Below are positions 7,700 through 63,973 of a stretch of 64,000 bases of DNA, in pieces. A model generated the notes under the pieces. That model made no database searches and was not told the origin of the DNA. It saw nothing but the letters and a program-made list of their open reading frames with translations. Numbering within the stretch: the first letter of the stretch is position 1; the number at the start of each line of letters is the position of its first letter. A program made the translations under genes and the position numbers. Source of the stretch: a virus. The stretch is taken from the IMG/VR virus record IMGVR_UViG_3300020139_000001, positions 13,757-77,756 of that record; one strand, given 5' to 3'.

Positions 7700-8396
7700 A
7701 AGAGCCTTCACAGAGCTCTTCGGTATCCACAAAAGAAGAAAAGTTACTTACATTTGCAATCACTTTGATTGCGAAATGTTGTTCACGATTGCGGGTCTGC
7801 AAGGCATTTATGTTCCCCAATCTTTGTGGGAGATAGTTGAGTATAGAGACGTTTCGTTTTATGTTGGCGTACGACCTCTGTTTATAGAGACAGAACATCC
7901 ACAAGGTTGGAAGATCGCTATCACTAATGCTATACTGTCTCAATATAGGCTGATCGGCGACATCACTCCACTCGTACGAGAGCTACTTCGATTGATCAAG
8001 AGTGAGAACATCTACGCGTTCGTACTGGATCGTCCTAATGTCGTGCTCTTTGCTGAAGAACCTCTACGTGTAGGAGTTGCTTTCCCATCGAAAAGATCTC
8101 AAGGATTCTCCTCTTTCTACATGTACGCAGATCTTGTGATTGCTTATGACGGAAGAAAGATTTCTATAGGTCTACGTTCGGAAGAGTACCTTCACCTTTT
8201 TGGTCCTACAGGACTGCTCTCCTTAGCAAGTATGTTAGGCGGCGGTTGGGGTGGTAGAAGCATGCTTATATGCTCTCCTAGATCGCAGAAGATGTCGCTT
8301 CCACAGCTTATGGAGGTCGTGTCTAAAGTACTGCGTTTTTTGAAGGGAGGACGAGATGTCAGATTTATTCGAAACTCTCGGCATCGCACCTGTTGA
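7560..8396 (+). CDS. DHH-like phosphoesterase-family protein
   Basis: LDHHG, NHFDCE, C-terminal GWGGR..SPR. Confidence 0.5.
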   Translation: MRVKVCTVPPKRMLKHYVPLEWHELGGPIQPPLDHHGESADLPPPVRRAFTELFGIHKRRKVTYICNHFDCEMLFTIAGLQGIYVPQSLWEIVEYRDVSFYVGVRPLFIETEHPQGWKIAITNAILSQYRLIGDITPLVRELLRLIKSENIYAFVLDRPNVVLFAEEPLRVGVAFPSKRSQGFSSFYMYADLVIAYDGRKISIGLRSEEYLHLFGPTGLLSLASMLGGGWGGRSMLICSPRSQKMSLPQLMEVVSKVLRFLKGGRDVRFIRNSRHRTC

Positions 8397-9360
8397 CTCC
8401 GACCTCAAAACAGATGTGAAAGAGGTCATTCCTACTAACATAATTCCTCTCGACATAGCTACTGGAGTAGGAGGCATACCTAGAGGCAGAATGACCTCCA
8501 TTATAGGAAAATACAGCACGTGCAAGAGTACTATTAGCATACTACTTGCGCGCAGTAATCATATGTTAGGAGGAAAGACGATCATACTTGACACAGAAAA
8601 TACATACGAATCCACGAGACTAAAGTCTCTGGGTGTTGACCCTAAGAGTGTAGCTATCCTCACTTCTTACAAAGAAGATGTTGGATTCACTATGGAAACT
8701 GCATCTGAGTTCATTCTTTCTGCAGCAAAACTAGCTAAACCAGAGGACAAGTTGCTCATTATTTGGGACACTATCAGTAGTACACCATTAGCAGCAGAGG
8801 TAGCAGAGGAAGTAGACTTTGATAGTTTGAAGAAGCTTATGGGTACACACTCGAGAATGCTCTCGAGACTCCTTAGAGCAGTGCCTAAAACATTTGTAGA
8901 TAACAACGTCACTTTTGTTATGGTTGTACAACCAAAGATTGATCCGATGACAGGTTCGACCACGTATCTGGGGGAGCTTCCTATCAAGTTCCACTCCTCT
9001 ATGATCATTCAATTGTCCACTTTCTCAAAAGAGGAGAAGCGTATGACTATACAATTCGAGATCGTGAAGAACAAGGTAGCCCCTCCTAGTGGAAGAGGCA
9101 AATTTATCTACTACTACAAAGAGGGAGTAGACTACGTCTCTGCTTGGGAGCCCGCTGTAGGAAAGTCTGCTGCACACTATACGTTAGACAACGTCTCTGT
9201 TAAGAGAACAGAGTCGGCTCTCCTTTTGCGAAAGAAGAAAGAACTAATTGAACAATTAGTTCTTTCTTCCTTAGCAAGACCCATTCCTTATCGCGTACTT
9301 ATTCCGGATATGGAACAGACTAGAACAACAGAGGAGGAGGAAAATGTTCAAACTGTCTGA
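8356..9360 (+). CDS. recA: RecA/UvsX recombinase
   Basis: LDIATGVGGIPRGR, Walker A variant GKYSTCKST, LDTE, IIWDTI, KFHSS, KNKVAPP. Confidence 0.92.
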   Translation: MSDLFETLGIAPVDSDLKTDVKEVIPTNIIPLDIATGVGGIPRGRMTSIIGKYSTCKSTISILLARSNHMLGGKTIILDTENTYESTRLKSLGVDPKSVAILTSYKEDVGFTMETASEFILSAAKLAKPEDKLLIIWDTISSTPLAAEVAEEVDFDSLKKLMGTHSRMLSRLLRAVPKTFVDNNVTFVMVVQPKIDPMTGSTTYLGELPIKFHSSMIIQLSTFSKEEKRMTIQFEIVKNKVAPPSGRGKFIYYYKEGVDYVSAWEPAVGKSAAHYTLDNVSVKRTESALLLRKKKELIEQLVLSSLARPIPYRVLIPDMEQTRTTEEEENVQTV

Positions 9361-48343: not shown

Positions 48344-49381
48344 ATGCTAAAAACGAAAGTCTCTTTTCAAAGTGCAAAGAGGATCGTAAAGACGGTCCTC
48401 TCTGCAAAAAGAACCGTCTTCCTATTTGGTCCTCCTGGTGTAGGGAAGTCTGCTCTTGGGAGAGAGATAGCTCAAGAACTCGGTGCAGAACTGTGCCTAT
48501 TGGACGCTCCACTAGTGCAGCCGATCGATTATCTAGCTGCAGTACCGAATCACGAGATGAAGAAAGTAATGCTGTACCCTACAGGTTTCATACCTGAAAA
48601 AGGTCCCGCAGTTGTGCTAGTGGATGATCTCCCCCATGCCAAACCATATCAACAGGCCCCTCTACTGCAAATGGCACTAGATAGGAGGATAGGACCTATC
48701 AAGTTCAGCGACGATGTGTATTTCATCCTCACAGGGAATCGTGAGGAAGACTTAGCAGAAGTGAATCCCATAATCTCACCACTTTTGAATAGACTAGTTC
48801 AGCTTGAACTAGAACCTTCATTAGAAGAGTGGCTAGAGTGGGGTGGGGAGACCATCAGGGAAGAGGTGCAGGCCTTCCTGAAGGCCTATCCGACCGAGTT
48901 CGTAAGGGTTCCTCAAGAAGGTCAAAGTGCATGGCCCACTCCAAGAAGTTGGCACATCCTCAGCGACTGTCTCAACTACGCTGAGAGGTTGTCTAGTGAA
49001 GAGGTACGTGCACTCGCTTACGGAACAGTAGGAGAGTACACGGGTGGTCTGTTCTTTACATTTGTAGCCCACTTACGTGGGATCGACCCTACGAGAATTG
49101 TAGAGAAGGGGGAGATCCCGCAGGAGACAGCAAGAGAGAGAGTATACGCATACATGTACGCGGTATGCTCCCTCCTGAAGGGGAAAGGAGTCGAATACTT
49201 GAATAAATGGGCGAAGAATATTGTCAAATTCTTCGACCAACTTCCTGGTGAGTTCAAAACTGCTATGCTAAAGGAGCTGTGCTCGGATCGAGGGAAAAAG
49301 ACCAGCATGGACCTAGTCGAAGAGCTGCGGAAGCACAGCCCTCAAGTCGATAAGCACCTACTTTCGTTATTGAGGGGGTGA
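48344..49381 (+). CDS. MoxR-like AAA+ ATPase
   Basis: GPPGVGKS, VLVDDL, TGNREED, LLNR, PTPRSW. Confidence 0.9.
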   Translation: MLKTKVSFQSAKRIVKTVLSAKRTVFLFGPPGVGKSALGREIAQELGAELCLLDAPLVQPIDYLAAVPNHEMKKVMLYPTGFIPEKGPAVVLVDDLPHAKPYQQAPLLQMALDRRIGPIKFSDDVYFILTGNREEDLAEVNPIISPLLNRLVQLELEPSLEEWLEWGGETIREEVQAFLKAYPTEFVRVPQEGQSAWPTPRSWHILSDCLNYAERLSSEEVRALAYGTVGEYTGGLFFTFVAHLRGIDPTRIVEKGEIPQETARERVYAYMYAVCSLLKGKGVEYLNKWAKNIVKFFDQLPGEFKTAMLKELCSDRGKKTSMDLVEELRKHSPQVDKHLLSLLRG

Positions 49382-49385
49382 GGAG

Positions 49386-50681
49386 ATGTCGGTATCAGTA
49401 GAGAAAATAGAAAATGCTTTGTCAAAAATAATGGTTTGGTTTCCAGAGTTCGCTGCCTTGATGTTGAAGTGGGAGATAATATCGCAAGAGGGTCTAGGGA
49501 CTCTGGCAACCAACTACGAGCTGCTCCTATACGATCCCAAGTTCGTACAGGAGCTGTCTCCCAACCAGCTAGCAACAGGCATCATCCACGAGGCGGTCCA
49601 TGATGCAATGTTGCACCCCACGCAGCTGACAGAAATCCAGATGAGTGGAAGGGACCCCAGTCTTTGGAGGGTAGCGGCAGAGGTCGTTACCAATGCCATA
49701 ACACTAGACCTCATTCGGAAAACCCCCTTCTCGTTCCCAGGCGGCTTTTACGACCCGATTCGGGGTGAACGGGTGAGCGGCGTAAGCAACGGTCCTTACG
49801 TATTCCTCTACGCCCCTGAGGGACACGACCATACTGTAGAGGAGGTCTACGAAATCCTCTACAAAAAATGGGGCTCGCGAGCCTCTCAGAGGGCAAGCGA
49901 ATGTTTGAACGCTAACAACGTCGCTTGTGTTAAAGACGTTTTAGCACCCAGCGGAAGATCTGAGTCTGGACAAAAAGAACGAGAGGAAACTGGAGGAGAC
50001 AAGGAGAAGGCTTCAGAAAGTTCTGGCGGAAGCCAAGGTAGTAGTTGGAGGGATAGCACAGAGAGCGTACGTATCGATGACGCTACCTCCGTATTGGCAG
50101 CTATCTCCCAACGTCTTGCGGGGAGGGTCCCCGTAGGCGTCGCTCGCCTATTGCAAAAACTAGTAAGAGGACGGATTCCTTGGCAAAGAATCCTTCGGAG
50201 GTTCGTAGCGGAGGTACAGCAAGGCATGGACGAACCAAGTTGGAGTAGTTATGACAAGAAGAGACAATCGGAGATATTGTTGCCTGGATTAATCGAGAGG
50301 GGGATAGATGAGTTAATCATTGCTATCGATACTTCCGGTTCGATCACTCAACGGGAACTACAAATGTTTCTGTCTGAAGTTGGTCGCCTATTGGCCACAT
50401 ACACTTTCCAAGTAAGGGTCTACACAGTAGACGCAGACGTCCAAGAACGTGTCACTGTGAAAAACCCCAGAGAACTAGTACACCGAATCAAACTCAAGGG
50501 GGGTGGGGGCACCAACTTCACGTCTCTGTTCCAAGAGGTGAGGCAGTGTAAGGCAATGATTTTCTTCACAGATGGGTATGCTACCTACCCTCCTACTTCC
50601 CCTAGGTACCCGGTGCTCTGGGTGTTAACCAAAGATCATCGGAGACCCCCCTTCGGAAGAGTAGCTTACATCGTGAAATAG
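49386..50681 (+). CDS. DUF2201-type metallopeptidase + vWA protein
   Basis: HEAVH, IDTSGS (MIDAS), GGGGTNF, FTDG. Confidence 0.9.
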   Translation: MSVSVEKIENALSKIMVWFPEFAALMLKWEIISQEGLGTLATNYELLLYDPKFVQELSPNQLATGIIHEAVHDAMLHPTQLTEIQMSGRDPSLWRVAAEVVTNAITLDLIRKTPFSFPGGFYDPIRGERVSGVSNGPYVFLYAPEGHDHTVEEVYEILYKKWGSRASQRASECLNANNVACVKDVLAPSGRSESGQKEREETGGDKEKASESSGGSQGSSWRDSTESVRIDDATSVLAAISQRLAGRVPVGVARLLQKLVRGRIPWQRILRRFVAEVQQGMDEPSWSSYDKKRQSEILLPGLIERGIDELIIAIDTSGSITQRELQMFLSEVGRLLATYTFQVRVYTVDADVQERVTVKNPRELVHRIKLKGGGGTNFTSLFQEVRQCKAMIFFTDGYATYPPTSPRYPVLWVLTKDHRRPPFGRVAYIVK

Positions 50682-50796
50682 AAGTAGTAGGTGTAGACTA
50701 TCCTTTCTCTTGCTCAGAGAAAGATGCATCAACTCACTAGAACACAGTACAGCAGATCTGCTATACTACAAACCAAAAAGAAAGGAGGTATAAAAC

Positions 50797-52056
50797 ATGT
50801 TAACAGATAGAAAAGCCATCGAAGAGTGGCTCATACAGATGAACATTAAGAACTACACCATCCGTAAGGAACTCACAGTGGATGTTAATGGGAGTGTAGA
50901 CCTATCGGAACGGAGGCTAGAGACGATACCTATACAATTTGGTATAGTTACGGGAAACTTTGACTGTTCCTGCAATAGTCTTACTACTCTCAGAGGAGCC
51001 CCTATTTATGTGGGAGGCAACTTCTACTGCGGAGGAAATCAACTCGTCACACTCAAAGGAGCTCCTGTTTATGTCGGGGGGGACTTCAATTGTTCCCATA
51101 ACATGTTGACATCGCTCAAAGGAGCTCCTCTCTATGTAGGAAGAGATTTCGTTTGCTCTTCCAACCTACTTATTACATTGGTAGGGGCTCCTATTTACGT
51201 AGGAGGAGACTTTCGCTGTCTGTACAACCAACTCACTTCGCTCGAAGGAGCTCCTGTTTATGTCGGAGGAGACTTTCGCTGTTTGCACAACCAACTCACT
51301 TCGCTCGAAGGAGCTCCTGTTTATGTCGGAGGAGACTTCAACTGTTACGATAATCAACTCGCTTCGCTCGAAGGGGCTCCTATCTACGTAGGTGGGCACT
51401 TCTACTGTACTGAAAACCAGCTCACTTCTCTAGAGGGGGCTCCACTCTATGTAGGTAAAGATTTTTGGTGCATCGGCAACCAACTTGTTTCATTAGAGGG
51501 TGCTCCTCTCTATGTAGGAGGAGATTTCGACTGCAGGGAAAACCCTCTTAAGTCTCTCAAAGGAGCTCCTCTCTATGTAGGAGGAGATTTCGTTTGCTCC
51601 CACAATAAACTCATTACACTAGAAGACGCTCCATCTCACGTCGGGAGAGATTTCAACTGCTCTTTCAACCAGCTTACCTCGTTAGTGGGAGCTCCATCTT
51701 ATGTAGGAGGAGATTTCGTTTGCTCCCACAATAAACTCATTACACTAGAAGACGCTCCATCTCACGTCGGGAGAGATTTCAACTGCTCTTTCAACCAGCT
51801 CACCTCGCTCAAGGGAGCTCCATCTTATGTAGGAAGAGATTTCGTTTGCTCCCACAACAAACTCATTACACTAGAAGACGCTCCATCTCACGTCGGGAGA
51901 GATTTCAACTGTAGGAGAAACCCGCTTAAGTCCTTCAAGGGAGCGCCTAAGCACATAGGAGGAAAGTTCCTATACAGCGCACGAGTATTTAAAACTCTCG
52001 AAACATTAGAAGAAGCACCTCCGTATGTTATCGAAAGTATTCTGAACCCTAGATAG
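50797..52056 (+). CDS. 22-aa LRR-like solenoid protein 1 (16 repeats)
   Basis: LxSLxGAPxxVGGxFxCxxNx repeats with N-cap and KFLY C-cap. Confidence 0.9.
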   Translation: MLTDRKAIEEWLIQMNIKNYTIRKELTVDVNGSVDLSERRLETIPIQFGIVTGNFDCSCNSLTTLRGAPIYVGGNFYCGGNQLVTLKGAPVYVGGDFNCSHNMLTSLKGAPLYVGRDFVCSSNLLITLVGAPIYVGGDFRCLYNQLTSLEGAPVYVGGDFRCLHNQLTSLEGAPVYVGGDFNCYDNQLASLEGAPIYVGGHFYCTENQLTSLEGAPLYVGKDFWCIGNQLVSLEGAPLYVGGDFDCRENPLKSLKGAPLYVGGDFVCSHNKLITLEDAPSHVGRDFNCSFNQLTSLVGAPSYVGGDFVCSHNKLITLEDAPSHVGRDFNCSFNQLTSLKGAPSYVGRDFVCSHNKLITLEDAPSHVGRDFNCRRNPLKSFKGAPKHIGGKFLYSARVFKTLETLEEAPPYVIESILNPR

Positions 52057-52090
52057 CAATAAAACTCATAATATTGAGGAAGAGAGGAGG

Positions 52091-53347
52091 ATGAACATGC
52101 TAACAGATAGAAAAGCCATCGAAGAGTGGCTCACTCAAGTAGGTATCACAAATTATACGATTAATGGTACTTTTAGAGTAAACGTTTACGGTGATGTAAA
52201 CCTCTCAAGAAAGGAACTAGATCAGTTACCTATACAATTTAGTATCGTCACAGGGTTCTTCGACTGTTCTCACAATAGACTTACTACTCTAGAAGGAGCT
52301 CCACTACTTGTTATGGGAAACTTTGACTGTGCCTTCAATCTACTTACTACTCTAGAAGGAGCTCCACTACTTGTTAGGGGAAACTTTTTGTGTGACAACA
52401 ATCAACTCACCTCTTTAGAAGGAGCTCCCAAATACGTAGAGGGGAGTTTCGACTGTTCCAACAATAGCCTTACTTCTCTAGAAGGGGCTCCCCTTTATGT
52501 AGGAAGCAATTTTTATTGCAGCCACAACAAGCTTATCACACTCGTGGGAACTCCACGTTATGTGGGGAAGAGTTTCTACTGCGAGCACAATCAACTCATC
52601 TCTTTAGAAGGAGCTCCCAAGTTCGTGAGGGGAAACTTCTACTGCTCTGAAAACCAGCTCACCTCGCTCAAGGGAGCTCCTTACTATGTAGAGGGAGACT
52701 TTGAGTGTTCGCTCAATAAACTCACCTCCTTAGAAGGAGCTCCACACTATGTAGGTGACAGCTTTTATTGTGGCCACAATCAGCTCACTACGCTCAAAGG
52801 AGCTCCACGCTACATAGGTGGGGATTTTGACTGTTCCCACAATCAACTCACTACGCTCAAAAGTGTTCCTCTATATGTGAGAGGAGACTTCGACTGCGAA
52901 CGCAATCAACTCACCACACTCGAGGGTGCTCCTTTCTACGTGGGAGGTAGTCTTTGGTGCAATCACAATCTACTTACTTCTCTGGAAGGAGCTCCGCTCT
53001 ATGTAGGAGGTAGCTTTCATTGTCTTTACAACAAACTCACTTCGCTCAAAGGGGCTCCCTCTTATGTAGGGGGTAGCTTCTGGTGTACACATAATCGACT
53101 TACTTCTCTAGAAGGAGCTCCCTTTTATGTTGGAAGAGATTTCAACTGCAGACTCAATTGCCTCACTTCTCTGGAAGGAGCTCCGCTCTATGTAGGAGGA
53201 GATTTCGACTGCAGGGAAAACCCTCTTAAGTCTCTCAAAGGAGCTCCCCTCTATATTGGGAGAAAGTTCCTCTACGATCCACGCACGCTCGAGTCATTAG
53301 AGGGAGCACCCCAGTGTATTATCGAAAGTATTTTGAATCCTAGATAA
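52091..53347 (+). CDS. 22-aa LRR-like solenoid protein 2 (16 repeats)
   Basis: Same repeat and caps. Confidence 0.9.
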   Translation: MNMLTDRKAIEEWLTQVGITNYTINGTFRVNVYGDVNLSRKELDQLPIQFSIVTGFFDCSHNRLTTLEGAPLLVMGNFDCAFNLLTTLEGAPLLVRGNFLCDNNQLTSLEGAPKYVEGSFDCSNNSLTSLEGAPLYVGSNFYCSHNKLITLVGTPRYVGKSFYCEHNQLISLEGAPKFVRGNFYCSENQLTSLKGAPYYVEGDFECSLNKLTSLEGAPHYVGDSFYCGHNQLTTLKGAPRYIGGDFDCSHNQLTTLKSVPLYVRGDFDCERNQLTTLEGAPFYVGGSLWCNHNLLTSLEGAPLYVGGSFHCLYNKLTSLKGAPSYVGGSFWCTHNRLTSLEGAPFYVGRDFNCRLNCLTSLEGAPLYVGGDFDCRENPLKSLKGAPLYIGRKFLYDPRTLESLEGAPQCIIESILNPR

Positions 53348-53392
53348 CAATAGAACTCACAAAACTAAGGGAAAGAAAGGAGGTGCACAACA

Positions 53393-54205
53393 ATGCTCAA
53401 AACAAGAAAAGATATTGAGGAATGGCTCGTACGAATGGATATCACTAATTATACAATCGATAGTGTTCTTGGGGTAGTGAACGTTGACGGCGATGTAGAC
53501 CTATCAGGAAAAGGGCTAGATCAACTGCCTATACAGTTCGGCATCGTCGCTGGAACTTTCGATTGCTCTTACAACAGACTCACTTCGCTTAAAGGAGTGC
53601 CGCGCTATGTAGAAGGAAGCTTTCGCTGTTCCTACAACGAGCTCACTAACTTAGAAGGTGCCCCCTACTATGTAGGCGGCACGTTCGACTGCGCACGCAA
53701 CCGGCTTACGACACTGAGGAGAGCTCCACTATGTATAGGAGGGAATTTCTATTGCTATGATAACCAACTTGTTTCATTAGAAGGAGCTCCTATGTTCGTA
53801 AAAGGAGACTTCACCTGCTCCAGTAACAAGCTCACCACCCTCGAGGGAGCTCCTCGTTATGTGGGAGGACACTTCTATTGCACCTATAACAAGTTGACTT
53901 CACTGCAGGGAGCTCCCAAGTTCGTAGGGGGAAACTTCTACTGCACTGAAAACCAGCTCACTTCCCTAGAGGGGGCTCCACTCTACGTAGGTGGGAACTT
54001 CTACTGCTACAGCAACACGCTCACGTCTCTCAAGGGAGCTCCTGTTTATGTCGGAGGAGACTTCAATTGCGAGGGGAACCTACTCAAGTCTCTCAAAGAT
54101 GCACCTAAACATGTGGGAGGTAAATTCCTCTACGACCAGCGATTGATCGAAACACTAGAAGGAGCACCTTCGTATGCTATCGAGAGCGTTCTGTATCCTA
54201 AGTAA
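53393..54205 (+). CDS. 22-aa LRR-like solenoid protein 3 (9 repeats)
   Basis: Same repeat and caps. Confidence 0.9.
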   Translation: MLKTRKDIEEWLVRMDITNYTIDSVLGVVNVDGDVDLSGKGLDQLPIQFGIVAGTFDCSYNRLTSLKGVPRYVEGSFRCSYNELTNLEGAPYYVGGTFDCARNRLTTLRRAPLCIGGNFYCYDNQLVSLEGAPMFVKGDFTCSSNKLTTLEGAPRYVGGHFYCTYNKLTSLQGAPKFVGGNFYCTENQLTSLEGAPLYVGGNFYCYSNTLTSLKGAPVYVGGDFNCEGNLLKSLKDAPKHVGGKFLYDQRLIETLEGAPSYAIESVLYPK

Positions 54206-54236
54206 GTACAACGCTTACAGAACGGAGGTGTAAAAT

Positions 54237-54908
54237 ATGTTAACAGATAGAAAAGCCATCGAAGAGTGGCTCACTCAGATGAACATTAAGAACTACACCA
54301 TCCGTAAGGACCTTACTGTAGATGTTAAAGGACGTGTAGACCTATCAGGAAAAGGACTAGATCAGCTGCCTATACGGTTCGGCATCGTCACTGGAACTTT
54401 CGATTGTTCTTACAACAAACTCACGTCGCTTAAAGGAGCGCCGTACTATGTAGAGGGAAGCTTTCGCTGTCTCAGTAATAGACTTACTACTTTAGAGGGA
54501 GCTCCACTTTGTGTAGGCGATACGTTTGATTGCGTACGCAACCAGCTTACGACACTGGAGGGAGCTCCACACCATGTAGGAGGGAATTTCTATTGTCACG
54601 ATAACCAACTCGTTTCACTAGAAGGAGCTCCTATGTTCGTAAGGGGAGACTTCACCTGCTCTAGCAATAAGCTCACCACCCTCGAGGGAGCTCCACACTA
54701 TGTAGGTAAAAACTTTTGGTGCACTCACAATCTACTTACTACTCTAGAAGGAGCTCCACTTTATGTAGGAGGAGATTTCGACTGCAGGGAAAACCCTCTT
54801 AAGTCTCTCAAAGGAGCTCCCCTCTATATTGGGAGAAAGTTCCTCTACGATCCACGCACGCTCGAGTCATTAGAGGGAGCACCCAGTGTGTTATCGAAAG
54901 TATCTTGA
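54237..54908 (+). CDS. 22-aa LRR-like solenoid protein 4 (7 repeats; C-cap frameshifted)
   Basis: Same repeat; 1-nt shorter C-run at 54882-54884 relative to gene 2. Confidence 0.88.
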   Translation: MLTDRKAIEEWLTQMNIKNYTIRKDLTVDVKGRVDLSGKGLDQLPIRFGIVTGTFDCSYNKLTSLKGAPYYVEGSFRCLSNRLTTLEGAPLCVGDTFDCVRNQLTTLEGAPHHVGGNFYCHDNQLVSLEGAPMFVRGDFTCSSNKLTTLEGAPHYVGKNFWCTHNLLTTLEGAPLYVGGDFDCRENPLKSLKGAPLYIGRKFLYDPRTLESLEGAPSVLSKVS

Positions 54909-54960
54909 ACCCTAAGTTAGTATAGAATCGTAAACTCAGAAAAGAAAGGGGACGTAGATA

Positions 54961-55650
54961 ATGCTCAAAACAAGAAGAGATATTGAGGAATGGCTTGCAC
55001 GAATGGACATTACGAATTACGTCCTACGTAGGGACCTTACTGTAGATGTTAATGGGAGTGTAGACCTATCGGAACGGAGGCTAGAGACGATACCTGTACA
55101 ATTTGGTATAGTTACGGGAAACTTTGACTGTGCCTTCAATCTACTTACTTCGCTCGAAGGAGCTCCTGTTTATGTGGGAGGAAGCTTCCTGTGTAGCTAT
55201 AACCGACTCCTTACTCTAGAAGGAGCTCCATCTTTTGTGGGAGGAGACTTTCGTTGTAGGTACAACCGCCTTACCTCTTTGAAAGGCTCTCCTCACTATA
55301 CTAGAGGAGACTTCGACTGCGAGCGCAACCAGCTTACTTCACTAATGGGGGCTCCTCGTTATGTCGGCGATGGATTTTACTGTGGATTCAATCTACTAAC
55401 GTCGTTAGTAGGTGCCCCTACTTATGTAGAAGGTAACTTCCACTGTCTCAGTAATAGACTTACTACTTTAGAGGGTGCTCCACTTTATGTAGGAGGAGAT
55501 TTCGACTGCAGGGAAAACCCTCTTAAGTCTCTCAAAGGAGCTCCCCTCTATATTGGGAGAAAGTTCCTCTACGACCCACGAACGCTCGAGACACTAAAGG
55601 AGGCGCCACCATACGTTGTTGAGAGTATTTTGAGCCCTGAGTTAGTATAG
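54961..55650 (+). CDS. 22-aa LRR-like solenoid protein 5 (7 repeats)
   Basis: Same repeat and caps. Confidence 0.9.
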   Translation: MLKTRRDIEEWLARMDITNYVLRRDLTVDVNGSVDLSERRLETIPVQFGIVTGNFDCAFNLLTSLEGAPVYVGGSFLCSYNRLLTLEGAPSFVGGDFRCRYNRLTSLKGSPHYTRGDFDCERNQLTSLMGAPRYVGDGFYCGFNLLTSLVGAPTYVEGNFHCLSNRLTTLEGAPLYVGGDFDCRENPLKSLKGAPLYIGRKFLYDPRTLETLKEAPPYVVESILSPELV

Positions 55651-55671
55651 AACCGTAAACTCAGAAAAGAA

Positions 55672-55800
55672 AGGAGGGAGATTTCAACTGCAGAGGGAAT
55701 CCTCTTAAGTCTCTCAAAGGAGCTCCTCTATATGTGAGAGGAAAGTTCTTATACGTCCACGGTCGTTTGGAACACTGGAAGAAGCTCTACCAAATGCTGC
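55672..55800 (+). pseudogene. Start-less remnant of a sixth LRR gene
   Basis: SD fused directly to GDFNCRGNPLKSLKGAPLYVRGKFLY; TLEEALP cap follows in another frame. Confidence 0.8.
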
Positions 55801-56044
55801 CACAATGCTTATGAAGACACCTCAAGATTCATCAAGAGGCTACAGAACGAACAAGCTTACGCTATGACTCCATACATAGAATTGCAACATTCGTTCATCT
55901 ACAAAAAATGTTAAAAATCGAGGCAGAACTCAGAAAAGTTTCGTTGTTTAAAACTGATTAAAACCAAATTACTCACTGATCGTTATCAAGCAACAGATTT
56001 CTTCCTCCTTTGGAGGAAACATACCAAATTTTGGAGGTTTTACT

Positions 56045-56524
56045 ATGATAGGCCCAGGTAAGTATAGGCTGACGAACGGGAAGTATTTCCTCAAAGTCGG
56101 TGTAGACTTCGCTATCGTTTATGGTAGCGAAAATCTCGTCGACAACGCAGAGCCTGAACACTACGCGGGTAAACTTGTAAGCGGACCTCCATCGGTAAAG
56201 GACGTAGACACGAGAGATGGAAGGGTAGTGGTCGCACACCTAACATCCCCTGCGGATGTGGAAGAGAGATGGACTTGTGACATCAGAAGCTATAGTGGAG
56301 ACAGAACTTGGAACAGCTGGGCAGAGTATACGTCTGCAGTATACTTAAGTGAGGAGTATAAGCACCTAAGCGCAAAGGGTACACCAATACTGCTCTACGC
56401 TCGACCTACTTCCAAGGGAGGCGGATGCTGGCTAGAGGTCAACATAGCCCCTTCTCGTCTCCTAACAGAGGATGGTAGAGTCGACACATCCAAGCTCACT
56501 TGGAGAGAAGAGGCTCTAGTCTAA
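56045..56524 (+). CDS. Hypothetical protein, paralog of 57455-57907
   Basis: GGAGGT SD; DRTWNSWAEY, SKGGGCWLEV..AP, RVDTSKLT. Confidence 0.75.
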   Translation: MIGPGKYRLTNGKYFLKVGVDFAIVYGSENLVDNAEPEHYAGKLVSGPPSVKDVDTRDGRVVVAHLTSPADVEERWTCDIRSYSGDRTWNSWAEYTSAVYLSEEYKHLSAKGTPILLYARPTSKGGGCWLEVNIAPSRLLTEDGRVDTSKLTWREEALV

Positions 56525-56642
56525 TGGGATCTCCGGGCCCGCGTACGAAGGACAAAAATAATAGTTCCTCAAAAAGTGGGAAACCACTAGTTTGGAAGGA
56601 ACAAAAGTTCCGAAGTACGAGGGCCCGGGTCTTATTTTTTTT
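56524..56642 (+). ncRNA. ~110-nt rod-like hairpin with GAAA tetraloop and T8 tail
   Basis: Nested CCGGGCCC/GGGCCCGG, CGTAC/GTACG, GTTCCT/AGGAAC, AGTGG-GAAA-CCACT. Confidence 0.55.
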
Positions 56643-56655
56643 GATAATAAAACTA

Positions 56656-56844
56656 TCATAGAAACATAGAACGCTATTAGCGTAAGCGTAGCTCTCGCGC
56701 TACGCTAGCCCAAAATCCGCAGACGACAGAACAAAACTTACGACCGAGTGATTGACCCCTCCGTTTCGGAGCAAGCTTGGTATTTGCTACTGCGGCTGAT
56801 TTCTACGTTCAATGTCCCTCAGGACATTGTTTGAGTTTTTATGA
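56656..56844 (+). ncRNA. ~190-nt multibranch structured RNA / leader
   Basis: Closing stem TCATAGAAAC/GTTTTTATGA enclosing several stems. Confidence 0.5.
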
Positions 56845-56864
56845 AACAACCTTGGAGGTGTTGA

Positions 56865-57212
56865 ATGAAAGTTAAAGCTGTTCTGAGAAGCTGTGTGGTA
56901 ACGAAGACATATGAGACTGAGGTACACGTGACAGTAGCCGAAGATCGTAAGCCCTTCGCTCTACTAGTTACAGTTGTAGAGTACGAGAGCCCAATGCACA
57001 CGGATACAGACTATAGCACTGAGTGGATGATGACTGCAGAACAGATAGAAGAGTTACAGAAACTTCTAGGAGATACTAACGAACTAGAGGGCCGAATCGT
57101 CCGGGCGGTGATGGATGCGTTGGAGAAAGCACACAATCCTGTAGACGATCTAGATGACGTAGTAATACTTGAAGAAGACGTTGGCGAGCAACATATCAGT
57201 ATACCCTCGTAG
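56865..57212 (+). CDS. Acidic hypothetical protein
   Basis: GGAGGTG SD; D/E-rich C-terminal half. Confidence 0.7.
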   Translation: MKVKAVLRSCVVTKTYETEVHVTVAEDRKPFALLVTVVEYESPMHTDTDYSTEWMMTAEQIEELQKLLGDTNELEGRIVRAVMDALEKAHNPVDDLDDVVILEEDVGEQHISIPS

Positions 57213-57454
57213 CAGGAAACCCCTTGGAGCAGTTAGTAGGGTAACTTCCAGAAACTGTGAGGCGTGTAGAGTTCTAGTTCTGTCTTCAGAATTTGAAGAG
57301 TGTCGTTACTCCTCCCGAGGCTGTGGGCGGTTGTTCAACACCAAAGAGTGACCACACATATTTCTTAATCGAAAGAGAGCAGTAAGTCCTCTACGAGGCA
57401 AAGAAGAGCCACCTTTGGTGGTGTAGCCCCGTAGAGGCATGCTAAGGAGGAAGT

Positions 57455-57907
57455 ATGTGGAAAAGAGGAATCTACAAAATCAACAAGGGGATGTTAGTGC
57501 GCCCCTCACCTCATGTGACCCTCGTGTTGATGGGAGCGCGAGAAGGTGATTGGGGAGGTGACTTAAGAATAAGATGTGGGAGACCTCCTAAAGTATACCA
57601 AAAGGAGGGAAAATGGATCATCAGGTGTAACACAGATGATACGGGAGGTTGGCTCGTAAGCGTACACACTAACATGAACGACAGATCATGGAATCGATGG
57701 TTGGAGTATGAGCGATTGGTAAAGGCTGCTCAAGAGTACAACCCTACTTGGTTCTTGTTTGCTGAGCAAATAAGTAGAGGAGGTGGTTGCTGGGCGGAAG
57801 TCACCTCCGCACCAGCTAGATATTTCCCTACTTGGAGGGGGATCATACAACCCCGAGTGGATACTTCTAAGCTAACGTACGAGGAGTCGGTTATAGAAGT
57901 ATTATAA
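57455..57907 (+). CDS. Hypothetical protein, paralog of 56045-56524
   Basis: AAGGAGG SD; DRSWNRWLEY, SRGGGCWAEV..AP, RVDTSKLT. Confidence 0.75.
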   Translation: MWKRGIYKINKGMLVRPSPHVTLVLMGAREGDWGGDLRIRCGRPPKVYQKEGKWIIRCNTDDTGGWLVSVHTNMNDRSWNRWLEYERLVKAAQEYNPTWFLFAEQISRGGGCWAEVTSAPARYFPTWRGIIQPRVDTSKLTYEESVIEVL

Positions 57908-61681: not shown

Positions 61682-63973
61682 ATGTATTACAAGGATGAAC
61701 CTCTAGGTATAGGCAATTTACAGACTAGGGTAGCCTTCCCTAATGCTTGGGTTTCCACCTGGAAGGAAAAGCCACTTCTAGTGACTATAGTCGGTGCTTA
61801 CCAAAGAGTTCTCATTTACGGGTTCGATTGTAACGTAAGTGACGATAGACTGAGTGTGACTGTTACGAAAGGAGCGCTCATAAAAGATCGTATTATCATT
61901 GAAGTTGGTGAAGATTGTGTCTTGCCTAGAGTGGATGCTGATGGTACATTCTATATCGCACTTAGGTATACTTTTAAGCAGCCCGTAGCTATCCGTATAG
62001 TAACACCTGACGCATACATTAACGAATATCCTCTCTACATGTATCTTGCCACCATTGTGTTAGCAGACAATCTGATACAGTCAGTAGTGAGAGATCCCGC
62101 GTTGGAAGAGAAGCCTGGAGTATGGCCTTACTACTTGGCGGGAGCTAGTAGTGAGGCTTTGCTCTCTTTATTGAGAACACCAAACTCTGGTGCAGACGTC
62201 CATTGGGACAATTTGATTAGCGTACCAGATCTCGTCGACGCTGTCGAGTTGCAGACTCCGGGAGCAGTTCAGGTACATTGGGACAATATAACAAACGTAC
62301 CTGATCTCGCAACTCATACACAATTACAAACCAGTGGACAGGCACAAGTTCATTGGGACAATATAACGAACGTACCTGAAGGCCTCCCTCCTGCTCCGCA
62401 TACACATGATGACAGATACTACACGGAAACAGAGTTACAAACCAGTGGGCAGGCACAAGTTCATTGGAATAACATAACGAGCAAGCCGACCTCGTTTCCT
62501 CCCTCTACACACGAGCACGATGACAGATACTACACCGAAACGGAGCTACAAACTAGTGGACAAGCACAAGTTCATTGGAATAACATAACGAGCAAGCCGA
62601 CCTCGTTTCCACCTTCTATGATACAGCCACAAGGTCACGATAGTGAACTGAACGCTGATATGTTAGATGGACAACATGGCACATACTACCTTTCTCGTGC
62701 TAACCACACTGGCACACAGTCGCCGTCTACAATATCACCACAAGGAGCTGGCAGTGGACTAGACTCTGATATGTTGGATGGACAACATGGCACATACTAC
62801 CTTTCTCGTGCTCACCACACTGGCACACAGCCACCCTCCACAATATCACCACAAGGAGCTGGCAGTGGACTGAACGCTGATATGTTAGATGGATATCACG
62901 CTTCACCGTCTCCTAATGTTAACACGATACCAGTAACTGGTGCTGACGGGAAACTGAGTGTTGATTGGTTATCAGGGGTTGTAACAAGTAGTGGTACCCC
63001 CTCGTACATAGCCAAGTTCGTGAACTTCAATGAGGTAGGCAACGCTCCTATTCGAGCGTCTACACAAGTAACGACTCTCCTCACTAGTGCTCGCTATGTA
63101 CCTCTTCTAGTATACTCCTTTAGTGGCAGAACGCTACGTGACGCTACAGTGGGTACGGACGACCCACCGTCAGATGTCGCGTTCGATGGTACTCACATCT
63201 GGATATCTGTCGGCTTGTCCACTATATACAAAGTGGATGTTGCTACTAACACGATAGTAGCAGCAATAGACTCGTCTCCAGGTTACCAGCCAAGCGATAT
63301 GGCATTCGATGGACGATATACTTGGGTAGTTCACGACGATAATGGCGTCCTAACTAAGATAGACATAATTACCAACGCTGTTGAACCTCTACCTACTAGT
63401 GTTGCAACTCCACAAGACATAATACTCGACGGATACTATGTGTGGGTGTCCGACTCTGGTGTTAACCAATTAGAAAAGTTCGACGTACGTACTGGAGATC
63501 TGGTAGCAGAGATAAATGTAGACAATCCTTACGACTTAGCGTTCGATGGAGCACATATATGGGTATGTAGTCACGACAATGGTTGGTTGTATAAGGTGGA
63601 CTCTGCTACGAATACTGTAGTAGCTACCATAAGTGTAGGAGAAGGACCAATTGGAATAGCATTCGATGGTACTCACATCTGGACTACCAACCAGTACGAC
63701 GATACTGTTAGCAAAGTAGATGTAGAAACCAATAGGGTGGTAGCTACCATAAGTGTAGGAGAAGGACCAATTGGAATAGCATTCGATGGCGTACGCATGT
63801 GGGTAACCAACTGGTATAGTAGTACTGTTAGCAAAATAGTAGTGGACGCTAACACTATATCTACAGCAGGAGTGAGTCCTAATCCATCAGGAGTGGCCTT
63901 TGACGGTACACATATGTGGATAGTCTACGAAGATATGTGCACGGTTGGCAAGTTGAAAGCTCGTAGGTACTAA
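61682..63973 (+). CDS. Tail fibre with shaft repeats and YVTN/YncE-like beta-propeller tip
   Basis: QVHWDNIT x5, HDDRYYTETE x2, DMLDG x3; AFDG.HIW and ATISVGEGP blades. Confidence 0.85.
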   Translation: MYYKDEPLGIGNLQTRVAFPNAWVSTWKEKPLLVTIVGAYQRVLIYGFDCNVSDDRLSVTVTKGALIKDRIIIEVGEDCVLPRVDADGTFYIALRYTFKQPVAIRIVTPDAYINEYPLYMYLATIVLADNLIQSVVRDPALEEKPGVWPYYLAGASSEALLSLLRTPNSGADVHWDNLISVPDLVDAVELQTPGAVQVHWDNITNVPDLATHTQLQTSGQAQVHWDNITNVPEGLPPAPHTHDDRYYTETELQTSGQAQVHWNNITSKPTSFPPSTHEHDDRYYTETELQTSGQAQVHWNNITSKPTSFPPSMIQPQGHDSELNADMLDGQHGTYYLSRANHTGTQSPSTISPQGAGSGLDSDMLDGQHGTYYLSRAHHTGTQPPSTISPQGAGSGLNADMLDGYHASPSPNVNTIPVTGADGKLSVDWLSGVVTSSGTPSYIAKFVNFNEVGNAPIRASTQVTTLLTSARYVPLLVYSFSGRTLRDATVGTDDPPSDVAFDGTHIWISVGLSTIYKVDVATNTIVAAIDSSPGYQPSDMAFDGRYTWVVHDDNGVLTKIDIITNAVEPLPTSVATPQDIILDGYYVWVSDSGVNQLEKFDVRTGDLVAEINVDNPYDLAFDGAHIWVCSHDNGWLYKVDSATNTVVATISVGEGPIGIAFDGTHIWTTNQYDDTVSKVDVETNRVVATISVGEGPIGIAFDGVRMWVTNWYSSTVSKIVVDANTISTAGVSPNPSGVAFDGTHMWIVYEDMCTVGKLKARRY
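62200..62900 (+). repeat. Near-identical tandem coding repeats in the fibre shaft
   Basis: HDDRYYTETELQTSGQAQVHWNNITSKPTSFPPS x2 and DMLDGQHGTYYLSRAxHTGTQxPSTISPQGAGSGL x2, conserved at DNA level. Confidence 0.85.

Follow-up and report, generated by a model that had tools for sequence, protein, structure and literature searches.

Five tandem leucine-rich repeat (LRR) genes in the DNA of a T4-like large myovirus of a hot spring read as patchworks of one another, and the locus raises the question of how such an array is diversified: through a dedicated mechanism that re-cuts the genes, or through ordinary recombination in an inherited family. We addressed this question in the window, by which we mean the entire 64,000-nucleotide stretch of DNA analyzed, and in contigs from other samples. 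Our results make it quite probable that the array is an inherited family of tandem binder genes in which unequal crossover, gene conversion and the duplication of repeats have generated diversity.

Five tandem genes share one repeat design and a predicted LRR fold

The five intact genes span positions 50797-55650, all on the + strand, and the alignment places an AGGAGG-type ribosome-binding site before each. From the open reading frames and the repeat register, gene 1 (50797..52056) encodes 419 aa, in which an N-cap helix precedes 16 repeats, each of 21 aa, and a C-cap; gene 2 (52091..53347) encodes 418 aa with 16 repeats, and gene 3 (53393..54205) encodes 270 aa with 9. Genes 4 (54237..54908, 223 aa) and 5 (54961..55650, 229 aa) have 7 repeats each and are the mosaic members described below. 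All five proteins stop 25-30 residues past the last repeat. Cutting the translations in register gave 55 full repeats, with the same counts per gene (16, 16, 9, 7, 7) as in the original prediction, plus one degenerate C-terminal unit per gene and zero indels. The repeat unit had been given as 66 bp, which the register and tandem-repeat analysis correct to 63 bp, or 21 aa.

Five residues, F1, C3, N6, L8 and P15, are invariant, and the first four, invariant or nearly so in 55/55 repeats, make up F-x-C-x-x-N-x-L, the local form of the LRR core LxxLxLxxNxL with its Asn ladder. L11, G13, A14 and V18 are conserved at ≥87%, and hypervariability is confined to positions 2, 4, 5, 7, 16 and 21, each with 7-13 residue types and an entropy of 2.2-3.2 bits, so that per-position entropy bears out the earlier description of a constant scaffold with variable residues around F, C and N. 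Pairwise identity among the 55 repeats averages 62%, and 25 of them have no partner at ≥80% identity.

AF2 models of gene 3 (pLDDT 93.1) and gene 1 (pLDDT 96.7, pTM 0.90, an unbroken solenoid) are open LRR solenoids of 9 and 16 turns, respectively. When the gene 3 model was compared with the PDB by Foldseek, the best matches were the LRR domains of SspH1, YopM, SspH2 and IpaH (probability 1.0, E=1.5e-4 to 6e-4); all of the best matches were LRR domains, with TM-scores of only ~0.5. By sequence, the nearest solved structure is the cysteine-ladder LRR of InlJ (PDB 3bz5, E=3.7e-12 with gene 2), and sequence searches also reach SspH1. Gene 2 was the sole copy above the cut-off of Pfam LRR_4 (36.2 bits vs 27), and the Pfam profile search gave no LRR family match for the other four genes. 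On the models and their structural matches, the five genes encode proteins of predicted LRR fold, as had been proposed.

We considered three narrower assignments and rejected each. Membership in the InlJ class of internalins is contradicted by NCBIfam internalin_J scores of 21-78 bits against a cut-off of 1700, this being the sole NCBIfam match, and by the absence of a signal peptide, inter-repeat domain and cell-wall anchor. The proteins are not NEL E3 ligases of the IpaH/SspH kind, as the chain ends at the C-cap and the profile search returned no NEL family match. A beta-flower fold (PF21786), which is a closed shallow barrel of 4-6 hairpin petals (PMC10584680), was approached by gene 1 alone (32.8 bits vs a cut-off of 34), and the models are open solenoids.

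The alignment with InlJ places four of the six hypervariable positions (21, 2, 4 and 5) on the canonical ligand face of the LxxLxLxxN strand, a mapping made by homology to canonical LRRs rather than from model coordinates. This is consistent, for those four, with the expectation that variable residues occupy binding-face positions, and the variable positions probably form the ligand face. With scaffold residues fixed and six positions per repeat free to vary, four of them predicted to alternate with beta-strand core residues, each paralog would therefore present a binding surface of its own, and the set would differ between related phage strains. A positive-selection check belonging to the original prediction found no demonstrated excess of dN/dS over 1 at the variable positions, where values ranged from 0.1 to 1.1: the ratio was 0.11 between genes 3 and 4 (7 substitutions) and, in 23 near pairs with small counts, 0.69 at concave positions and 1.14 at positions 7 and 16. 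These values do not establish diversifying selection and would suit relaxed constraint equally well.

Genes 4 and 5 are mosaics of their neighbors

Along genes 4 and 5, identity to one paralog switches from ~60% to 96-100% at sharp breakpoints. Identity tracks show gene 4 to be 96% like gene 1 from nt -9 to 80, 87-93% like gene 3 in the middle and 100% like gene 2 at its 3′ end. The predicted order of gene 1 start, gene 3 repeats 1-5 and gene 2 end therefore stands overall, and genes 3 and 4 are collinear across repeats 1-5, but repeat 2 departs from it, being nearest to gene 5 repeat 6 and not to gene 3 repeat 2. Aligned with gene 2, gene 4 has a 1-nt deletion that replaces the conserved C-terminal tail. 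Gene 5 runs from 91% likeness to gene 3 through 96-98% likeness to gene 1 to 93% likeness to gene 2 repeat 2, which is the succession originally described; unique repeats follow, and then a 3′ end like those of genes 4 and 2. The breakpoint test gave 38:3 vs 4:37 for gene 4 (Fisher p=5e-15), with p=1e-7 and 8e-6 in further breakpoint tests, and run-length permutation gave p≤0.0002 in five gene pairs; gene 5 is a mosaic by both kinds of test.

Identical tracts of 62-123 bp stand out against the ~62% likeness of the paralogs otherwise. The longest, an identical conversion tract found by exact-match extension on the + strand, spans the last repeat of gene 2 together with the beginning of its C-cap (53189..53311) and equals 54762-54884 in gene 4 over 123 bp. 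Its first 89 bp recur at 55486-55574 in gene 5, so the 89-bp block reported at three sites is exact at all three, and between genes 4 and 5 the identical block extends to 98 bp. Part of this block had also been placed inside gene 1, where we found a 62-bp exact tract (51508-51569, equal to 53186-53247 in gene 2) that overlaps it.

Mosaics of this kind could be produced by a short-read assembler jumping between paralogs at shared sequence, and the 89-123-bp identical blocks, as well as the breaks in Logan contigs throughout the array, are what such an artefact would exploit. The mosaic segments, however, are not identical to their "parents" (96% for gene 1, 87-93% for gene 3), and hence genes 4 and 5 carry substitutions of their own. 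Gene 4 moreover switches from gene 1 to gene 3 where these two are only 51-73% alike (flanking 45-nt windows), and independent contig pieces cross the gene 1/2, 2/3 and 3/4 boundaries at single-copy depth. We therefore regard an assembly origin as highly improbable, while the order in which sequences are joined across those 3′ blocks that are fully identical (89-123 bp) is taken from the assembly.

Repeats have been gained, homogenized and lost

Within gene 1, a two-repeat unit of 126 bp has been amplified in frame and in tandem at 51589..51903 (+ strand; TRF period 126, 3.4 copies). In the identity matrix, repeats 11, 13 and 15 are identical at 98-100% and repeats 12 and 14 at 90%; this amplification is recent. 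Repeat 10 of the same gene is of the terminal type though internal, and it falls inside the terminal-repeat clade (SH-aLRT 97). The repeats do not cluster by gene, the pattern that the original prediction had named as speaking against mosaicism: a tree of the single repeats shows 30 changes of gene label, where clustering by gene would need 4 and label shuffling gave 31.7±1.9. The tree thus agrees with the identity tracks, permutation and breakpoint tests that recombination between paralogs diversifies the array, as had been claimed. The picture of ~55 shuffled cassettes holds for the mosaicism, but "cassettes" overstates it, given the low mean identity and the 25 repeats without a close partner.

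The motif GGAGCTCC is shared by 32 of the 55 repeats, and GCT is the codon used for Ala in 45/51 cases against a background of 0.40; arrays of other phages have homogenized different codons. This shared block and the GCT bias reflect concerted evolution of the repeats. Downstream of gene 5 lies a decayed sixth copy (55677..55811, + strand), recognized from a tblastn match at 55674-55772 and from its sequence and translation. It retains the leader and ribosome-binding site seen before gene 5, followed by a terminal-type repeat and a frameshifted C-cap, and its start codon is absent.

Quite probably, ordinary homologous recombination on the in-register 63-bp repeats diversifies the copies. Unequal crossover would yield chimeric genes and altered repeat number, short gene-conversion tracts would overwrite gene ends, one- and two-repeat units would be amplified in frame, and deletions would leave gene fragments behind. 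The original prediction had suggested that the phage's own RecA/UvsW might drive the array. A RecA/UvsX-family recombinase gene is indeed present at 8356..9360 on the + strand (PF00154, 81.9 bits at contig 22163-22885, equal to window 8407-9129), and its product is a candidate driver of the exchanges; that driving role is inferred. Separately, we rejected PeSL-mediated module shuffling, in which T4-like phages exchange modules at conserved intergenic promoter and stem-loop motifs, as the available text of PMC2839356 and PMC4122927 describes it. The four 31-52-nt spacers between the LRR genes hold no promoter-like or terminator-like sites, and the breakpoints fall within the coding sequence of repeats and caps.

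One allele in the likely source sample, putative other arrangements elsewhere

If the array were instead re-cut in a programmed way at high frequency, as in VLRs or antigenic variation, genomes would differ within a population or infection cycle. In the likely source sample every contig piece listed fits the window, with zero variants, indels or joints at a depth of ~32-51, and one array allele is seen at the contig level, a comparison that may hide rare variants. A second sample contains a relative whose flanks are 97.6-98.9% identical and whose array pieces are 89.5-98.9% identical, and 13 contig joints among those listed join array parts in a different order; these data come from contigs of depth 3-7 that Logan assembled from a single additional sample, which is on file under two entries. 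Repeats or other organisms can also give rise to joints such as these.

The related population with other junctions would suit programmed diversification, as would the many mosaic junctions, the identical tracts, the in-register microhomology in every repeat and the phage-encoded recombinase. Against it, the five genes are complete and separately translatable, silent donor cassettes are absent, most repeats are old and unique at 62% mean identity, and the source contigs are uniform to the extent stated above. We consider this reading very unlikely. The VLR-like mechanism of the original prediction is accordingly not supported: each gene has its own ATG and ribosome-binding site, and there are no promoterless donors. 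A diversity-generating retroelement was also rejected, as the 77.7-kb contig, which is incomplete (~37% of the genome), gave no match to the RVT_1 reverse transcriptase.

Such arrays recur in other phage contigs. Two other viral contigs carry four and thirteen tandem LRR genes, among which tracts of 93 and 375 nt are identical, and the family numbers 11,354 clusters at E≤1e-10, the Atlas clusters being mostly viral.

Possible roles of the array proteins

The location of the array among tail and baseplate genes could indicate that the LRR proteins are virion components, either injected cargo with a T4-type capsid-targeting leader or host-recognition parts on the virion surface. Predicted host-recognition fibers of phage Goslar contain LRR domains, and the LRR genes of another viral contig (L012) begin MKLKQLFE, a leader of the hydrophobic-x-Glu type. 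The window genes lack this leader, however, and start three residues before the confidently modeled N-cap helix; their "IEE" aligns with "VEA" within the helix of the L012 proteins. In the predicted models the five proteins consist of cap, repeats and cap over their whole length, with no anchoring or fiber domain, and we judge a virion role unlikely. Since the alignment with the L012 paralogs has the window genes starting at the cap helix, we did not class them as T4-type capsid-targeted internal proteins.

Directly upstream, on the same strand and with no terminator-like site between, lies a pair encoding a MoxR-type AAA+ ATPase and a DUF2201 metallopeptidase/VWA protein (48344-50681), for which the LRR proteins might serve as substrate adaptors. 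Six metagenomic contigs with both pair genes (33-43% identical homologues) have no adjacent LRR gene, and six other LRR-gene loci have no MoxR or VWA gene. This lack of conserved adjacency weakens the adaptor reading, which we think extremely improbable.

Returning to the inherited binder family, its products are small LRR proteins of cytoplasmic type, in which 7-16 repeats of 21 residues with an internal Cys/Asn ladder stand between an N-cap helix and a C-cap. Within the infected cell they may bind proteins of the host or of competitors, and we conjecture a role in anti-defence or host capture. We further speculate, while regarding it as rather unlikely, that the array works as a heritable library of binders with fast turnover, in which in-register blocks that concerted evolution maintains as identical (GGAGCTCC) let phage recombination frequently recut the repeats and the ends of genes, and co-circulating strains differ mainly in the host defence or surface proteins bound. 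If so, the library would be a counter-defence or host-range repertoire, resembling immune receptor families in logic and not in mechanism.

Comparison with known systems

In lampreys and hagfish, an incomplete VLR gene receives promoterless cassettes by somatic assembly, with the help of cytidine deaminases. The phage proteins resemble VLRs as capped LRR binders with variable repeat number and predicted concave-face diversity, but the phage genes are inherited in complete form, and a single allele is seen at the contig level in the likely source population. The LRR domains of SspH1/SspH2, IpaH, SlrP and YopM are substrate-binding modules with 20-22-residue repeats and an NxLxxLP motif. These effectors are alike in providing the best structural matches and in their short repeats with that motif, whereas the phage proteins have no NEL E3-ligase domain or secretion signal and end at the C-cap. 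Plant NLR/R-gene clusters are tandem LRR paralogs that evolve through unequal crossover and gene conversion, yielding chimeric genes and variable repeat number, with variation concentrated at solvent-exposed LRR positions. The phage array shares their tandem chimeric paralogs, their variable repeat number and, as predicted, the exposed location of variable residues, and differs in lacking an NB-ARC or signaling domain, in its viral genome, and in that positive selection is not demonstrated.

The Listeria internalin InlJ (3bz5; Bublitz et al. 2008, as cited in the available text of PMC9525666) also has an LRR of 21 residues, in which Cys occupies the core position that it has in the phage repeat. 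Its loop reads Leu-Asp-Val-Ser as opposed to Leu-x-Gly-Ala-Pro in the phage, and its signal peptide, inter-repeat domain and cell-wall anchor have no counterpart here. Giant viruses and Dictyostelium hold repertoires of FNIP or FGxxFN LRRs (consensus LxxLxFGxxFNQ), which their authors too compare with VLRs (PMC9525666, available text). These are likewise large virus-encoded LRR paralog families, with a different repeat consensus and in eukaryotic viruses, and that text reports no mosaic analysis.

The LRR locus of Flavobacterium psychrophilum holds up to 19 tandem genes of 2-14 LRRs each, with gene fragments between genes, hypervariable positions on one side of the modeled solenoid and extensive recombination signatures, and it varies from strain to strain within conserved flanks (Altae-Tran et al. 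2020, PMC10392669). Its proteins are secreted to the cell surface; they carry a secretion peptide at the N terminus as well as a type 9 secretion signal, and their repeat is ~22 residues long (PMC10392669). Unlike these, the phage array is phage-encoded, has no secretion signal, uses a 21-residue Cys-ladder repeat and contains only one fragment. The two loci are alike in their tandem paralogs, variable repeat number, localized hypervariability and fragments, and in strain differences between conserved flanks, which on the phage side come from low-depth contigs.

Five tandem genes share a 63-bp repeat

Five plus-strand ORFs encoding proteins of 419, 418, 270, 223 and 229 aa occupy 50797-55650 (genes 1 to 5, at 50797-52056, 52091-53347, 53393-54205, 54237-54908 and 54961-55650), separated by spacers of 31-52 nt and each preceded by an AGGAGG-like site. 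Tandem Repeats Finder and a second repeat finder both returned a period of 63 bp and its multiples, which corrects the 66-bp unit of the original prediction. Cutting the proteins in register, with zero indels, gave 16, 16, 9, 7 and 7 full 21-residue repeats, as had been predicted, and after its last full repeat each gene closes with a single degenerate unit and a short tail. When the repeat is numbered from its invariant Phe, F1, C3, N6, L8 and P15 are unchanged in 55/55 repeats, and L11, G13, A14 and V18 are nearly so. Positions 2, 4, 5, 7, 16 and 21 each carry 7-13 residue types and are rich in D, Y, N, R, H, S and W.

The end of gene 4 (54873-54908) departs from the family. There, gene 4 is one base short in a C run relative to gene 2 (GCACCCCAG in gene 2 becomes GCACCCAG) and therefore ends in SVLSKVS* instead of the conserved tail xxIESILNPx, which can still be read in another frame. 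Gene 4 may here be starting to decay, or the altered cap may be tolerated.

The repeats are predicted to form an open LRR solenoid

Pfam is nearly blind to this family, with only gene 2 passing, as LRR_4. Gene 1 gave a sub-threshold match to PF21786, the "beta-flower", a fold described as a closed barrel of 4-6 hairpins (PMC10584680). AlphaFold2, run with alignments for genes 1 and 3, instead modeled open solenoids for both (gene 1, pLDDT 96.7 and pTM 0.90; gene 3, pLDDT 93.1 and pTM 0.88), and on these models the beta-flower reading was rejected. In both, a cap helix opens the chain at the N-terminus, each repeat contributes two very short strands, and cap helices close the C-terminus. The PDB entries that Foldseek matched best were all LRR domains, led by SspH1, YopM, SspH2 and IpaH7.8, and matches in a viral structure library were LRR proteins from giant viruses and uncultured tailed phages.

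Among solved structures, internalin J (3bz5, E=3.7e-12) is the closest in sequence and SspH1 comes next, and the sole NCBIfam match was the InlJ model, far under its cut-off. Because the invariant repeat Cys aligns to the InlJ Cys at the same core position, we assign the repeat, on sequence, as an LRR of 21 residues whose interior carries a Cys/Asn ladder. The x residues of a canonical LxxLxLxxN strand point to the concave ligand surface. By analogy, variable positions 21, 2, 4 and 5 would correspond to the strand x residues that face the ligand, and variable positions 7 and 16 fall outside the LRR strand. Our best guess is that the LRR products bind host or rival proteins within the infected cell.

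Genes 4 and 5 are mosaics of their neighbors

The original prediction held that the genes are mosaics, and this is borne out by an identity track, run-length permutation and breakpoint tests. When the closest paralog was followed as the best match in a sliding 45-nt window, it switched abruptly along the genes. Between its leader and about nt 80, gene 4 matches gene 1 at 96% and genes 3 and 5 at only about 62%, and past that point it is 87-93% like gene 3. The gene-3 likeness is interrupted at repeat 2, which is 96% like gene 5 repeat 6, and then resumes; from nt 531 to about 620, gene 4 is 100% like gene 2. Gene 4 is also 91% like sequence 3′ of gene 5. Gene 5 runs from 91% likeness to gene 3, through 96-98% likeness to gene 1, to 93% likeness to gene 2 repeat 2, after which a unique stretch leads into sequence 100% like genes 4 and 2. 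The predicted 89-bp identical block is present exactly at all three of its positions (53189-53277, 54762-54850 and 55486-55574), and the identity runs on to 123 bp in the gene 2/4 pair and to 98 bp in the gene 4/5 pair. A 62-bp tract that overlaps this block is identical in genes 1 and 2.

When polymorphic sites were put in permuted order, the longest identical runs proved significant for five gene pairs (p<=0.0002). For gene 4 against genes 1 and 3, the best breakpoint divides the sites 38:3 versus 4:37 (Fisher p=5e-15 over 76 breakpoints), and breakpoints were also detected for gene 5 against genes 3 and 1 (p=1.3e-7) and for the 3′ end of gene 4 against genes 2 and 5 (p=8e-6). Could such joints have arisen during assembly? 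The segments of genes 4 and 5 are 2-13% different from their parents, and at the main breakpoints those parents have no long exact match in common. For these reasons genes 4 and 5 are not assembly chimeras of the other copies; only the pairing of sequence across the fully identical 3′ blocks is less secure.

Strict grouping of repeats by gene, which the original prediction had named as a refutation, is not seen. On a per-repeat tree, poorly resolved with 63 columns, gene labels change 30 times, against 31.7+/-1.9 when shuffled and 4 for strict clustering by gene, and repeat identity is 63% within genes and 62% between them. The picture of shuffled cassettes is overstated, since repeats average 62% pairwise identity, a partner at >=85% exists for only 19 of them and 25 lack one at 80%. 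Recent events are few and specific. Genes 3 and 4 are collinear across repeats 1-5; 5′ ends have been exchanged among genes 1, 3, 4 and 5; and genes 2, 4 and 5 have a common 3′ end, with the likeness continuing into the downstream spacer in genes 4 and 5 and in a sixth-copy remnant (55677-55811, plus strand). This remnant consists of a last repeat and a frameshifted cap, without a start codon. Gene 1 contains a two-repeat, 126-bp unit amplified three times, and the array also holds one single-repeat duplication. Repeat 10 of gene 1 (51526-51588) is of the terminal type (FDCRENPLKSLKGAP) yet has six further repeats after it, which gives gene 1 the look of an in-frame fusion at the 62-bp tract it has in common with gene 2.

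These few recent events are what unequal crossover, gene conversion and slippage would be expected to leave in a tandem array, and they show ordinary recombination as the mechanism. The mosaic tests and exchange products thus support the proposed recombination-diversified LRR repertoire.

Scaffold codons are homogenized and constrained

Gly-Ala-Pro codons are far more uniform than phage codon usage predicts, with Ala encoded by GCT in 45/51 cases against a background of 0.40. A palindromic 8-mer spanning these codons, GGAGCTCC, is present in 32/55 repeats, against just two occurrences in the remaining 59 kb. The synonymous sites of Gly13, Ala14 and Tyr17 are likewise much more uniform than phage codon usage. 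In the arrays of other phages different codons have been homogenized, and this therefore points to within-lineage homogenization rather than a universal nucleotide signal.

By Nei-Gojobori counts, with synonymous sites saturated in most repeat pairs, dN/dS was 0.18-0.24 for scaffold codons, 0.9-1.1 for positions 7 and 16, 0.69 for the four strand positions across 23 near pairs, and 0.11 for those four positions between genes 3 and 4, where only 7 substitutions contribute. Most strand residues are conserved between genes 3 and 4. The repeat scaffold is under strong purifying selection, and the variable positions are under relaxed or mixed constraint. Positive selection at the variable positions was not demonstrated by these counts on the repeats.

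A second sample hints at a differently cut array

Population data came from Logan contigs only. Two runs, probably one data set, are probably the source of the stretch. Their pieces match it exactly, with the listed pieces at depth 32-51 and the flanks at 42-46, and they bridge the gene 1/2, 2/3 and 3/4 boundaries. No variant, indel or joint was found in the Logan contigs of these runs. A second sample, filed twice, is covered at depth 3-7, with some bins of the stretch not covered; identity is 97.6-98.9% for its flank pieces and 89.5-98.9% for its array pieces. At this low depth, where such joints are known to be unreliable, 13 listed joints connect parts of the array in another order, among them a gene-2-like body behind a gene-4-type start and the gene 2 N-terminus joined to that of gene 5. 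We take these joints only as a hint of a close relative with a differently cut array.

The array lies in a contractile-tailed phage

The window covers bases 13757-77756 of a linear IMG/VR virus record of 77,756 bp. CheckV places the record at 37% completeness, so the full genome is probably about 200 kb. PHROG matches to tail sheath, baseplate wedge and tape-measure proteins identify a contractile-tailed phage, and the runs containing the stretch are labeled as hot-springs or sediment metagenomes. A RecA/UvsX-family gene is on the same contig, as expected in a heavily recombining T4-like phage.

Directly upstream of the array (48344-50681) is a pair encoding an AAA+ ATPase and a DUF2201_N metallopeptidase / VWA-like protein. 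This MoxR-VWA pair stays together in six metagenome contigs of hot-spring type, at 33-43% aa identity (degenerate VWA pattern), and none of the six has LRR genes beside it. A functional link between the pair and the LRR genes was dropped, as the adjacency is not conserved elsewhere. Close relatives of the phage did not turn up: the VWA protein had no match in searches of viral and metagenome contigs, and megablast of 48344-57907 against phages had none either. Just 3′ of the array are two small paralogous genes, 56045-56524 (159 aa) and 57455-57907 (150 aa), whose products are 38% identical over 88 residues, have GGGCWxEV and VDTSKLT motifs in common and gave no Pfam or NCBIfam match. At the end of the contig, 61682-63973 encodes a 763-aa protein with DUF6923 and YNCE-like beta-propeller matches and weak tail-fibre matches in PHROG.

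The repeat belongs to a very large phage family

Of 8,000 candidates in a word-index search, more than 7,000 were homologues, and an exhaustive search of clusters at 50% identity found 20,937 at E<=1e-3 and 11,354 at E<=1e-10. The Atlas clusters closest to gene 4 are mostly labeled viral, the best homologues sit on contigs of 130-340 kb, and the family is also present in named records, among them two 196-kb Vibrio phages and uncultured phage genomes of 735 kb and 642 kb. A genome-contig scan with gene 3 as the query matched a single MAG locus. Four family representatives (P0121-P0124) are 1,755-2,267 aa long and match in 8-12 separate stretches; if they are not giant multi-LRR proteins, the gene caller has read through tandem arrays.

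Tandem family genes also occur on two other IMG/VR contigs, 4 on one and 13 on the other, with neighbor-identical tracts of 93 and 375 nt, respectively. The four paralogs of the first (L012:3142-8146) all start MKLKQLFE(S/T), a short leader of the hydrophobic-x-Glu type ahead of the cap helix. Genes 1-5 lack this leader, and a capsid-targeting reading is not supported for the window's array on that ground. The 13 back-to-back genes of the second (L013:1809-13682) belong to a related subfamily with a Leu-x-Gly-Cys-Pro loop. Their stop and start codons mostly overlap, and the 375-nt identical tract is in genes 12 and 13.

Significance and comparison with known systems

Among protein families of phage metagenomes that lack annotation, this LRR type ranks with the largest, and our search of the literature on phage LRR arrays found no paper. 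The window offers a compact, statistically clean example of how such arrays evolve and extends the pattern to a hot-spring phage. Should targets be found, the family could prove a major class of phage proteins for host interaction or counter-defence, as well as a natural thermostable binder scaffold.

An ordinary-recombination mechanism also guards against over-reading the array as an analogue of adaptive immunity. The VLR analogy of the original prediction fails on its defining features, because VLRs combine an incomplete gene with silent cassettes, whereas the phage genes are complete and no such cassettes accompany them; because Logan contigs gave no sign of per-genome diversity in the probable source sample; and because the contig yielded neither a reverse transcriptase nor another dedicated diversifier. 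A DGR reading was dropped for want of that reverse transcriptase. Plant R-gene clusters behave like this tandem LRR array. Another viral case is provided by the FNIP LRR repertoires of giant viruses, whose authors likewise invoke VLRs (PMC9525666). Of the systems described so far, the Flavobacterium psychrophilum tandem LRR locus comes closest, with up to 19 genes of 2-14 repeats each, one-sided hypervariable positions, gene fragments, recombination signatures and differences between strains (PMC10392669). The F. psychrophilum proteins differ from those of the phage array in being secreted and displayed at the bacterial surface (PMC10392669).
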